Below are positions 24,587 to 25,474 of a stretch of 64,000 nt of DNA, one piece after another. The notes under the pieces are model-generated. The model was not told where the DNA came from. It did not search any database and worked only from the letters and a program-made list of their open reading frames with translations. The translations under genes were made by a program, and so were the position numbers. The stretch comes from Escherichia coli (GTDB lineage: Bacteria; Pseudomonadota; Gammaproteobacteria; Enterobacterales; Enterobacteriaceae). Positions within the stretch are counted from its first letter, which is position 1. Every line of letters starts with the position of its first letter. The DNA lies in assembly GCF_017348835.2 (NCBI RefSeq), contig NZ_CP071375.1. The stretch is one strand, 5' to 3'.

Positions 24587-25474
24587 GTGGTACGGCGTTT
24601 AACTTCTCCGCGGCTCGAATTTGAAGCTGCGGCAATTTATGAATATCCCGAACATTTACGTTCATTCCTTAATGACTTACCCACCCGACCAGGGGTGTAT
24701 CTGTTTCATGGCGAAAGTGACACCATGCCGCTCTATATCGGCAAAAGCGTTAATATCCGCAGTCGGGTGCTTTCTCATTTACGCACCCCGGATGAAGCCG
24801 CCATGCTACGGCAATCCCGGCGAATTAGCTGGATCTGCACCGCAGGCGAAATCGGCGCTCTGCTCCTTGAAGCGCGATTAATCAAAGAACAACAGCCGCT
24901 GTTTAATAAACGGTTGCGCCGCAATCGCCAGCTCTGTGCCCTGCAATTAAATGAAAAGCGCGTCGATGTGGTGTATGCCAAAGAGGTGGATTTTTCACAA
25001 GCCCCCAACCTGTTTGGCCTGTTTGCCAATAGGCGCGCAGCTTTGCAAGCATTGCAGAGCATCGCTGATGAACAAAAACTTTGTTATGGCCTGTTGGGAC
25101 TGGAACCGTTAAGTCGCGGTCGTGCATGTTTTCGTTCAGCGCTAAAACGTTGCGCCGGAGCATGCTGCGGTAAAGAGAGCCATGAGGAACATGCGCTACG
25201 CTTGCGCCAGTCTCTGGAGCGTTTGCGGGTTGTGTGTTGGCCTTGGCAAGGTGCGGTGGCACTGAAAGAACAGCACCCGGAAATGACTCAATATCATATT
25301 ATCCAAAACTGGCTGTGGCTGGGGGCGGTTAATTCGCTGGAAGAAGCGACAACGTTAATTCGGACACCCGCCGGGTTTGATCACGACGGTTATAAAATTC
25401 TTTGTAAGCCGCTGCTTTCCGGTAACTATGAAATTACTGAACTTGATCCGGCGAATGACCAGCGAGCCAGTTGA
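24587..25474 (+). CDS. cho: UvrC-homologue excinuclease Cho (GIY-YIG nuclease)
   Basis: 295 aa ORF starting at GTG with N-terminal GIY-YIG motif (GVYLFHG...YIGKS); recognised as Cho. Confidence 0.9.

Follow-up and report, generated by a model that had tools for sequence, protein, structure and literature searches.

Two pairs of convergent genes overlap tail to tail at their 3' ends in the 64-kb window, the whole stretch of 64,000 nucleotides of E. coli DNA that was analyzed. Both the ORF listing and the raw sequence place 41 bp in common between cho and ves and 35 bp in common between nudG and ynjH. The genes and their overlaps are as follows.

24587..25474, plus strand: cho CDS, excinuclease Cho, 295 aa, GTG start, length identical in MG1655
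25434..26009, minus strand: ves CDS, HutD-family protein Ves, 191 aa, annotated start ATG at 26009
25434..25474, both strands: cho/ves overlap, phase 123:132, covering Cho residues 283-295 and Ves residues 179-191
42562..42969, plus strand: nudG CDS, Nudix CTP/5-hydroxy-CTP pyrophosphohydrolase, 135 aa
42935..43207, minus strand: ynjH CDS, DUF1496 protein, 90 aa, GTG start
42935..42969, both strands: nudG/ynjH overlap, 35 bp, phase 123:132

The cho gene ends in TGA at 25472-25474 and ves in TAA (tta on the plus strand) at 25434-25436, while the stops of nudG and ynjH are TAG at 42967-42969 and TAA at 42935-42937, respectively. These stop codons are unambiguous, and the overlaps are therefore independent of the choice of start sites. 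On the start side, the mechanical ORF of ves extends to a TTG at 26072, beyond the annotated ATG. The relative coordinates of both overlaps are identical in the RefSeq/PGAP annotations of strains PE164, AH19F006 and Ecol_AZ161, and RefSeq places the same overlaps in K-12 MG1655 (cho 1823515..1824402 with ves 1824362..1824937; nudG 1841490..1841897 with ynjH 1841863..1842135). Overlaps of these lengths had been claimed in the initial annotation and are confirmed by the ORFs, the raw sequence and the RefSeq records of MG1655 and the three further strains. Both regions occur at at least 95% identity in approximately 5,420 of 5,426 complete E. coli genomes, and both overlaps are fixed in all E. 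coli examined (five strains) as well as in two divergent Escherichia genomes. Two of the 11 convergent pairs in the window overlap and two more are separated by 3 and 8 bp; comparison with chance is the wrong yardstick for the cho/ves and nudG/ynjH overlaps. Neither overlap is new, as both are already standard annotation, and nudG/ynjH with its Ribo-seq tracks serves as the GWIPS-viz illustration of overlapping genes (PMC5753223).

All four genes are genuine. Pfam matches cover most of Ves (HutD, residues 8-175 of 191), NudG (NUDIX, residues 4-125 of 135) and the C-terminal part of YnjH (DUF1496, residues 33-89 of 90), and the solved structure PDB 2RRK spans NudG at full length (residues 1-135). 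Cho gave no Pfam match at E <= 0.001, and an AlphaFold2 model meant to judge disorder in its tail was too poor for that use (mean pLDDT 60.7); the protein is 71-95% identical across genera, in 16 other genomes, with 130 invariant columns. Orthologues across dozens of genera likewise support the genes of the overlapping pairs as genuine. The assertion that the overlaps are not annotation artefacts is borne out by the unambiguous stop codons, the reality of the four genes and the fixation of the overlaps in E. coli.

Overlap length and C-terminal tails across Enterobacterales

Overlap length was compared across 80 Enterobacterales loci/species, among which the gene pairs persist while the length of the overlap varies. 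For cho/ves it ranges from a 41-bp overlap to a 28-bp gap: 41 bp in Escherichia and three Citrobacter, 23 bp in Enterobacter and Lelliottia, 24, 15 and 7 bp in a single genus each, 4 bp in two genera, and the 28-bp gap in one. The nudG/ynjH pair ranges from a 44-bp overlap to a 105-bp gap, with overlaps of 35 bp (n=13), 41 bp (n=15), 44 bp (n=2) and 8 bp (n=2), one locus each at 26, 23 and 12 bp, and gaps of 1 to 105 bp (n=10) in Yersinia, Serratia, Hafnia, Edwardsiella, Rahnella and Rouxiella. Where cho and ves are both complete, 15 of 16 genomes show some overlap, and where nudG and ynjH are both present, 35 of 46 do, so that for both pairs several species have an overlap, at varying lengths. 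Their description as conserved features therefore holds for the presence of an overlap of some length in most Enterobacteriaceae and fails for the length itself, which is labile and gives way to gaps elsewhere.

Gene content is variable as well, some lineages having lost cho and others, independently, ves. In four Citrobacter species cho is missing and a 191-aa Ves is kept, followed by an ordinary spacer with a hairpin; Pluralibacter gergoviae lacks ves. An apparent 74-nt overlap of cho with spy in P. gergoviae was rejected as an artefact of extending from the end of a tblastn match: scanned from its start, Cho of this species is 288 aa long, and its stop lies ~70 nt short of the spy stop.

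The overlapped codons encode mostly unconserved C-terminal tails. Cho residues 287-295 show no consensus across genera. Ves ends in ..WLPGH in most genera, and the added SPDQVQ is restricted to Escherichia and Citrobacter; these 6 codons amount to 18 nt, the difference between the 41-bp and 23-bp overlaps, but Cho tails, too, differ in length between these genera. Conservation at nudG/ynjH is asymmetric. NudG has no consensus after ..LLxAF, and its tail ..ALRAARPAD results from reading, in antisense, the codons of the conserved C-terminus of YnjH, NPLVWRRVKP. Within that C-terminus N-P-L-V-W-R-R-V hardly changes, whereas the NudG tail takes several forms (RAARPAD, RDARPAD, PDATPAD and others). 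In the AlphaFold2 model of NudG the final helix spans residues 116-130, and residues 131-135 have a pLDDT of ~61.

Even the stop codon of nudG toggles with the synonymous base of a ynjH Thr codon: TAG is present only where that codon is ACT, and ACC, ACG and ACA turn it into TGG, TCG and TTG, respectively. The 41-bp allele of nudG had an exact match in 0 of the 5,426 complete E. coli genomes, so that this toggle is seen between Escherichia lineages and species. Diversity at third codon positions of ynjH is 0.34 inside the overlap vs 0.49 just outside, a comparison of very few sites that could reflect a weak constraint from NudG.

Transcript ends, promoters and the case for regulation

The features that bear on transcription of the two pairs are listed below.

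24554..24573, plus strand: LexA-box-like palindrome TACTGGATAGATAACCAGCA, 14 nt upstream of the cho GTG start
25493..25521, plus strand: stem-loop in the cho-sense RNA, 12-bp stem ACCUUGCGGUUG-UAAAA-GCCGCAGGGUGU, inside ves codons 163-172
26063..26090, minus strand: sigma-28 (FliA) promoter of ves, TAACGTAA-N12-GCCGATAA, 53 nt upstream of the ATG
42958..42995, plus strand: conserved bulged helix CCAGCGGAT / ATCaCGCUGG, enclosing the nudG stop codon
43242..43269, minus strand: candidate sigma-28 promoter of ynjH, TAAAGTTT-N12-ACCGTTAT, 34 nt upstream of the GTG

We assign the palindrome presumptively to LexA and take cho to be an SOS gene.

With no intergenic DNA between the partners, the 3' ends of their transcripts must fall within the partner gene. 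A scan for hairpins followed by T runs found no canonical intrinsic terminator at or after either overlap, and Rfam at the gathering threshold placed no family in either. The Rfam matches elsewhere in the window were limited to an ALIL pseudoknot (IS3 element) and ES036 between nadE and cho. Beginning 19 nt past the cho stop, the cho-sense RNA can form a strong stem-loop that lacks a U tract, the next letters being GUGCCUGCCAUCG. Its 34-nt window folds at -19.4 kcal/mol on the plus strand vs -10.5 on the minus strand (two G-U pairs). It falls within the top 0.06% when every 34-nt window of the 64 kb is compared, and K-12 carries it unchanged. This stem-loop is a candidate 3'-end determinant of the cho mRNA. 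At the homologous site the cho-sense hairpin averages -10.2 kcal/mol in cho-containing genomes vs -4.0 in cho-less ones (one-sided Mann-Whitney p = 0.004, uncorrected for phylogeny), suggesting that selection has acted on one or more RNA features here, and it is absent in several cho-containing genera. The neighboring tight pairs tcyP/ydjO and ynjE/ynjF also carry strong hairpins embedded in the 3' coding end of the partner.

No hairpin at -17 kcal/mol or stronger was found at nudG/ynjH. The consensus helix around the nudG stop scores z = -4.55 against column shuffles in alifold on the plus strand and -0.76 on the minus strand; its pairs hardly vary and fall in conserved YnjH codons, which makes the z-score uninformative on selection for structure, and the helix is probably a by-product of those codons. 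A 12-bp inverted repeat, ATCCGCTGG..CCAGCGGAT, that appears in the E. coli minus-strand fold lies outside the alifold consensus and was set aside.

C-rich, G-poor tracts predicted from base composition to suit Rho lie 60-300 nt past three of the four stops. In 80-nt windows the C/G ratio downstream of the stops peaks at 2.0 for cho (+180), 1.76 for ves (+180) and 2.67 for ynjH (+200), and is weaker for nudG at 1.57; the median over the window is 1.0 and the 95th percentile 1.71. In the Term-seq supplements of Adams et al. transcript ends are missing for ves, nudG and ynjH as well as for the 3' end of cho, and a Rho-dependent 3' end is placed ~24 nt inside cho; none of the four genes has an entry in the SMRT-Cappable-seq supplements. 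The initial annotation had held that such overlaps leave no room for terminators. That is true of intergenic DNA only: the cho stem-loop sits inside ves, tcyP/ydjO and ynjE/ynjF have embedded hairpins of their own, and C-rich tracts follow three of the four stops.

One new detail is that both minus-strand partners, ves and ynjH, are sigma-28 (FliA) dependent. Expression in wild type vs delta-fliA is 18 vs 0 for ves and 29 vs 2 for ynjH, and the two are among only four non-flagellar genes whose earlier-reported FliA-dependent promoters were confirmed by FliA ChIP-seq (PMC4183435). The ves promoter sequence matches the FliA ChIP-seq motif for ves (PMC4183435 Table 2), and of the 26 scanned loci that contain ves, 20 have a perfect copy of its -10 element, cho-less genomes included. 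FliA dependence of ynjH is also reported in bioRxiv 2020.09.09.289983. Its Salmonella homologue STM1300 is likewise FliA-transcribed, and the promoter-like motif is conserved with unchanged spacing in Escherichia, Citrobacter, Enterobacter and Lelliottia.

For MG1655, the ExcludonFinder map of 2025 names 165 convergent excludons, among them cho-ves, nudG-ynjH and their neighbor ynjE-ynjF, called where transcripts overlap in at least 50% of 58 MG1655 RNA-seq sets (PMC12288877). Because the coding sequences overlap, this call is automatic whenever both genes are detected, and full-length partner mRNAs are complementary over at least 41 or 35 nt. As a class, excludon pairs exceed other neighbors in synteny and are co-expressed in fewer single cells, and validation of dsRNA with p19 was, according to the authors, not feasible for the convergent ones (PMC12288877). 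Transcriptional interference or antisense coupling had been said to follow from the overlaps. Either is a possibility and not an implication, given the failed dsRNA validation of convergent pairs and the lack of Term-seq 3' ends at the overlaps, and transcriptional interference at both pairs is plausible but unproven.

If both overlaps were true excludons, selected as regulatory devices, sigma-28-driven transcription of ves and ynjH would enter the 3' ends of cho and nudG, collision of polymerases or cleavage of the duplex by RNase III would make expression of the partners mutually exclusive, and SOS-induced cho would act likewise on ves. Such a role would sit well with the place of both pairs in the published excludome (PMC12288877), with widely conserved convergent adjacency and with the FliA dependence just described, including that of STM1300, the retention of the ves -10 element and the ynjH motif in several genera, but it has to accommodate an overlap length that is labile and replaced by gaps in other families, the independent loss of cho and ves, and a ves promoter retained without cho. 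All four genes are weakly expressed, as the normalized values of 18 for ves and 29 for ynjH illustrate, and the Rho-dependent 3' end inside cho means that most cho transcription may never reach ves. With the overlaps also devoid of Term-seq 3' ends and dsRNA validation having failed for convergent pairs, we regard this reading as unlikely.

It is highly unlikely that the overlaps host bidirectional terminators of the SEnd-seq type, in which a stem-loop would position head-on collisions of RNA polymerase and both transcripts would end at defined, overlapping 3' ends. According to bioRxiv 2022.10.23.513370, that model needs a stem-loop and neither a U tract nor Rho, and the cho stem-loop and the comparable embedded hairpins at tcyP/ydjO and ynjE/ynjF are of this form. 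The cho hairpin, however, lies within ves, so that ves transcripts must read through it, it is far weaker on the ves strand, and it is missing in several genera that have cho; nudG/ynjH has no hairpin of -17 kcal/mol or stronger, and its consensus helix lacks informative covariation. Collision termination also requires frequent convergent transcription, which is unlikely at the expression levels of these genes.

Slimmer still are the prospects of a logic shared by the two loci, in which the sigma-28 genes ves and ynjH would be aimed head-on at cho, the presumed SOS nuclease, and nudG, a sanitizer of damaged nucleotides. In motile, flagellated cells, head-on transcription and duplexes of the 3' RNAs would then lower Cho and NudG, SOS-induced cho would damp ves, and the ves-embedded stem-loop would set the point of collision or termination for cho; if true, this would couple lifestyle to DNA repair capacity. 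Finally, the idea that one ORF of each pair is not real, or truly ends earlier than annotated, is effectively refuted already by 3' ends set by stop codons, the Pfam domains of Ves, NudG and YnjH, the full-length NudG structure, the conservation of Cho and the displayed Ribo-seq tracks of nudG and ynjH (PMC5753223), and we found no support for it; Cho lacks a Pfam match and a good AlphaFold2 model.

Origin of the overlaps and comparison with known systems

We consider it likely that both overlaps are genuine but ordinary, the result of tight convergent packing and stop-codon drift. The stop of one or both genes in a tightly packed convergent pair would have moved downstream, so that dispensable C-terminal tails would now be encoded antisense to the 3' end of the partner. 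At cho/ves the conserved protein cores abut almost exactly, as the 4-bp overlap of Kosakonia shows, and the 41 bp of Escherichia and Citrobacter consist of a variable Cho tail of 9-11 residues plus the 6-residue Ves extension. At nudG/ynjH, YnjH is the constrained partner, with its C-terminus within DUF1496, and the NudG tail is its antisense. In phase 123:132, codon position 2 faces position 3 of the partner, which is the least constraining phase and the commonest among convergent overlaps.

Under packing and drift, the 3' end of cho would likely be determined by the U-tract-less stem-loop, and the transcripts of ves, nudG and ynjH, together with cho RNA extending beyond the hairpin, may be ended by Rho acting on C-rich antisense RNA or by head-on polymerase collision. 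The resulting mRNAs would be complementary at their 3' ends, an excludon-type architecture, and any regulatory effect of the overlaps is probably small and incidental. The overlaps themselves, their phase, their labile length, the uneven conservation of the partners and the hairpin are direct observations; this account of termination and the lack of a selected function are what we infer from them. Against a view of pure drift, some overlap persists in nearly all Enterobacteriaceae; together with the synteny and single-cell trends of the excludon class, this persistence means that the arrangement may be under selection.

Beyond book-keeping, the importance of the two overlaps is slight. In E. 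coli, overlap between convergent CDSs is an ordinary consequence of compact packing that changes readily in evolution, and by itself it is no evidence of regulation. The two pairs are clean examples of how the conserved codons of one partner dictate the tail of the other and even its stop codon, how gene order is kept while overlap length drifts, and how transcript-end hairpins can sit in a neighbor's coding sequence. Were the sigma-28 link functional, they would offer two simple cases of condition-specific convergent interference on DNA-repair genes.

Among known systems, excludons, a Listeria concept since mapped in E. coli and S. aureus (PMC12288877), resemble both pairs in comprising opposite-strand neighbors with overlapping transcripts. 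Classical examples have long overlapping UTRs and a demonstrated reciprocal effect, whereas cho/ves and nudG/ynjH overlap within their coding sequences, and any reciprocal effect or RNase III processing in them is hypothetical. The collision terminators of Ju et al. 2019, as described in bioRxiv 2022.10.23.513370, share with cho/ves a convergent pair, the lack of a canonical intrinsic terminator and a U-tract-less stem-loop; they sit between genes, however, and the cho stem-loop is inside the ves CDS, is strand-asymmetric and is predicted from sequence. Closer at hand, the tcyP terminator inside ydjO is, like the cho hairpin, the hairpin of a plus-strand gene within the last codons of its minus-strand partner. 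It is followed by a U-rich tract (UUACUUUUUAAAU), unlike the cho hairpin, and nudG has nothing comparable.

Convergent overlapping genes of prokaryotes were reportedly surveyed by Rogozin et al. in Trends Genet in 2002. The E. coli genome contains 58 convergent overlaps (Lillo and Krakauer 2007, PMC2174442); in that survey, 49% of those at least 5 nt long are in phase 123:132, and stop-codon mutation is the chief origin of convergent overlaps. The surveyed overlaps are, like both pairs described here, short 3'-3' overlaps of tens of nucleotides in phase 123:132 with poorly conserved C-terminal extensions. At 35-41 bp the present overlaps are longer than the commonest, 4-bp class, yet well inside the reported range, and nothing essential differs.

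Coordinates and coding content of the overlaps

The window, a chromosomal stretch of E. coli, is essentially the same as in strain PE164, and its K-12 counterpart is the thrS-cdgI region. Two convergent gene pairs share 3' coding sequence: cho (excinuclease Cho) with ves (HutD family), and nudG (Nudix protein) with ynjH (DUF1496). Their boundaries were taken from the ORF listing and the raw sequence:

24587..25474, plus strand, cho coding sequence
25434..26009, minus strand, ves coding sequence
42562..42969, plus strand, nudG coding sequence
42935..43207, minus strand, ynjH coding sequence

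The pairs thus have 41 bp (cho/ves) and 35 bp (nudG/ynjH) in common, confirming the lengths proposed in the initial annotation. RefSeq gives identical relative coordinates in MG1655 (cho, 1823515..1824402; ves, 1824362..1824937; nudG, 1841490..1841897; ynjH, 1841863..1842135) and in three other strains, and both loci were found in about 5,420 of 5,426 complete E. coli genomes. The view that the overlaps are not annotation artefacts also holds. Stop codons fix the 3' ends, so the overlaps are independent of start-site choice, and each of the four is a real gene: HutD, NUDIX and DUF1496 domains occur in Ves, NudG and YnjH, respectively, full-length NudG is covered by PDB 2RRK, and Cho aligns with strong conservation across genera.

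The shared codons encode largely variable protein ends. In Cho, 1-11 unconserved residues trail the conserved part, and no consensus emerges in alignment columns 287-295. The HutD domain of Ves ends at residue 175 of 191; Ves terminates in ..WLPGH in most genera, and SPDQVQ is added only in Escherichia and Citrobacter. These six extra codons (18 nt) match the difference between overlaps of 41 and 23 bp, with Cho tail lengths also differing between these genera. The NUDIX domain of NudG ends at residue 125 of 135, the AlphaFold2 model (mean pLDDT 93) places a final helix at 116-130 and has low confidence in the tail (131-135), and consensus across Enterobacterales is gone beyond ..LLxAF. The YnjH C-terminus NPLVWRRVK lies within DUF1496 and is nearly invariant, also in genomes lacking the overlap. 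In NudG the tail ALRAARPAD, this stretch read antisense, has variants such as RDARPAD, PDATPAD and RGARPVD, whereas the YnjH side stays constant. The nudG stop is TAG only if a ynjH Thr codon is ACT; ACC, ACG or ACA converts the stop to Trp, Ser or Leu and extends NudG by at least two codons. The 35/41/44 polymorphism of this pair is the stop lost or kept through that Thr codon. The overlaps consist of dispensable tails, and neutral changes on the partner's side determine how long each overlap is.

For comparison, 20-kb loci of 80 Enterobacterales species were fetched via XthA, located halfway from one overlap to the other, and the four genes were placed by tblastn and in-frame stop extension.

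Spacing of the two convergent pairs across Enterobacterales (bp; negative, overlap; positive, gap). nudG/ynjH was counted over 46 loci with both genes.
cho/ves, -41: Escherichia, three Citrobacter
cho/ves, -24: Siccibacter
cho/ves, -23: Enterobacter, Lelliottia
cho/ves, -15: Superficieibacter
cho/ves, -7: Phytobacter
cho/ves, -4: Kosakonia, Enterobacter sp. Bisph1
cho/ves, +28: Enterobacter sp. ENT03, strong hairpin in gap
nudG/ynjH, -44: 2 loci
nudG/ynjH, -41: 15 loci
nudG/ynjH, -35: 13 loci
nudG/ynjH, -26, -23 and -12: 1 locus each
nudG/ynjH, -8: 2 loci
nudG/ynjH, +1 to +105: 10 loci (Yersinia, Serratia, Hafnia, Edwardsiella, Rahnella, Rouxiella)
nudG and ynjH not adjacent: 1 locus

These spacings indicate that gene adjacency is old and stable and the overlap itself labile. 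The proposed conservation of the overlaps therefore stands for the arrangement, which is kept across genera, but not for the length, which runs from -41 to +28 for cho/ves and from -44 to +105 for nudG/ynjH. Four Citrobacter species cleanly lack cho and three others retain it; in the former, the 60-80 nt between nadE and the opposing ves contain a GCCGGATAA..TTATCCGGC hairpin, and Ves is still 191 aa. In Pluralibacter gergoviae, cho is present and ves missing.

The sole gapped cho/ves pair, that of ENT03 (locus L045:1824..1853), holds a near-perfect long hairpin, CCCCTGAACCGGCA..TGCCGGTTCAGGGG (-37 kcal/mol for the 80-nt segment), which resembles a terminator or a REP-like element that has been inserted.

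Possible transcript ends within partner genes

A consensus scan returned no hairpin-plus-U-tract terminator at or beyond either overlap, and an Rfam search returned no family at either. Three other structures lie inside convergent partner genes:

25493-25521, plus strand, 12-bp cho-sense stem-loop, 19 nt past the cho stop, within ves codons 163-172
12298..12331, canonical intrinsic terminator of tcyP, wholly within the 3' coding end of ydjO
41852..41885, plus strand, ynjE hairpin CTGACGCTGGAGCGACTTCAGCGTCAG, directly 3' of the ynjE stop, within the 3' end of ynjF

The claim that such overlaps leave no room for terminators is thus too strong. The cho stem-loop, identical in K-12, folds at -19.4 kcal/mol in a 34-nt window on the plus strand versus -10.5 on the ves strand, because two pairs of the stem are G-U, and is among the strongest 0.06% of all the 34-nt windows of the 64 kb. 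Homologous sites fold at a mean of -10.2 kcal/mol with cho (n=17) versus -4.0 without it (n=10; one-sided Mann-Whitney p = 0.004, or 0.0085 with one Escherichia only). As these p values carry no phylogenetic correction and several cho-containing genera lack the hairpin, we regard the stronger folding as a lead. The tcyP terminator has an 11-bp G+C-rich stem followed by TTACTTTTTAAAT (U-rich tract, UUACUUUUUAAAU) and forms a stable fold on either strand (-25 and -24 kcal/mol), with 3 bp between the tcyP and ydjO coding sequences. The ynjE hairpin (-19.4 kcal/mol) is without a U tract, and 8 bp separate ynjE from ynjF.

At nudG/ynjH there is no hairpin of -17 kcal/mol or stronger, and conservation of YnjH codons accounts for the consensus helix. 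A 12-bp inverted repeat, ATCCGCTGGCC / GACCAGCGGAT (42894..42906 and 42954..42966), arises from the same Pro-Leu codons, convergent in nudG (YPLAP) and ynjH (NPLVW); in the minus-strand fold of the E. coli sequence its arms lie on either side of the ynjH stop, and the cross-species consensus structure does not include it.

Rho has an established role in suppressing antisense transcription. C-rich, G-poor tracts lie 60-300 nt past the cho, ves and ynjH stops (C/G up to 2.0, 1.76 and 2.67; window 95th percentile, 1.71), and from that role we infer that such RNA, when untranslated, would be a suitable Rho substrate. Term-seq (Adams et al., PMC7815308) placed a Rho-dependent 3' end some 24 nt into the cho ORF (window ~24611; MG1655 1823539, plus strand), a Rho read-through region further into cho (window ~24856; MG1655 1823784, plus strand) and, 123 nt upstream of ves, the terminator of spy; its tables enter no 3' end for nudG, ynjH or either overlap. 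The published cho 3' end suggests that most cho transcripts terminate prematurely.

Sigma-28 promoters and flanking features

Both minus-strand partners are reported to depend on FliA (sigma-28), which was unexpected. ves and ynjH are two of only four non-flagellar genes whose earlier-reported FliA promoters were confirmed by ChIP-seq, with expression in motile MG1655 versus delta-fliA of 18 versus 0 for ves and 29 versus 2 for ynjH (Fitzgerald et al. 2014, PMC4183435). The Salmonella ynjH homologue is likewise transcribed by FliA. Two sites were located in the window:

26063..26090, minus strand, ves FliA promoter motif
43242..43269, minus strand, candidate ynjH sigma-28 promoter, TAAAGTTT-N12-ACCGTTAT

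A perfect ves GCCGATAA element occurs in 20 of 26 scanned loci with ves, cho-less genomes among them, and the ynjH candidate is kept in Escherichia, Citrobacter, Enterobacter and Lelliottia. The plus-strand partners, cho and nudG, are DNA-damage or mutation-avoidance genes. That FliA-dependent genes face them may be coincidental: genomes lacking cho still keep the ves promoter, and expression is low.

The ynjH FliA motif as printed, TAACGTTATTGTCTCTGCTACTGATAAC (PMC4183435, Table 2), falls at 43216..43243 on the plus strand, opposite to ynjH, and overlaps the ynjH ribosome-binding site; the correctly oriented candidate is about 25 nt further upstream.

Several flanking features were also recorded. 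ES036 (CssrF) sRNA has an Rfam match in the nadE-cho intergenic region, amid REP-like sequences (24437..24479, plus strand; 42.9 bits, gathering score 37.6). A LexA-box-like palindrome, TACTGGATAGATAACCAGCA (24554..24573, plus strand), lies 14 nt 5' of the cho GTG start, so near that almost no leader is left; the single perfect CTGT-N8-ACAG match in the window is upstream of ydjM (10141..10156). The flanks differ from K-12 in two genes: espL1, a type III effector gene adjoining thrS (3054..4952, plus strand), and an IS3-family transposase between ydjO and cedA (13163..14376, plus strand), within which Rfam places an ALIL frameshift pseudoknot (120 bits).

Origin of the overlaps and relation to known convergent pairs

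Taken together, the best-supported account of both overlaps is that neutral drift of stop codons, in convergent genes packed closely together, would produce them, with transcript ends probably specified within the partner gene. Interference between the partners, as inferred from the overlaps, is unproven. FliA dependence defines the conditions under which to seek it. Only two leads would justify a small experiment, the link to FliA and the cho hairpin embedded in ves.

The 11 convergent pairs of the window are spaced at +51, +40, +3, +319, +46, -41, +8, -35, +116, +160 and +50 bp, and the two overlaps are one extreme of a graded series to which tcyP/ydjO and ynjE/ynjF also belong. E. coli has 58 convergent overlaps (Lillo and Krakauer, PMC2174442); the same survey has phase 123:132 as the commonest (49%) for convergent overlaps of at least 5 nt and traces them chiefly to stop-codon mutation. 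Codon registers read from the sequence put both overlaps in this phase (position 1 opposite 1, 2 opposite 3), and neither is unusual. In the ExcludonFinder map (NAR 2025, PMC12288877), cho-ves, ynjE-ynjF and nudG-ynjH are three of the 165 convergent excludons of MG1655, neighbouring opposite-strand genes with overlapping transcripts in 50% or more of 58 RNA-seq data sets. That study contains no pair-specific experiment for the listed pairs, and its dsRNA (p19) validation of convergent pairs was unsuccessful; support is at class level only, as higher synteny and fewer co-expressing single cells. The "overlapping genes nudG and ynjH" also served as the GWIPS-viz 2018 example of strand-specific Ribo-seq display (PMC5753223). 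The convergent overlaps of exactly these two pairs are already catalogued, and they are of a known, ordinary kind.
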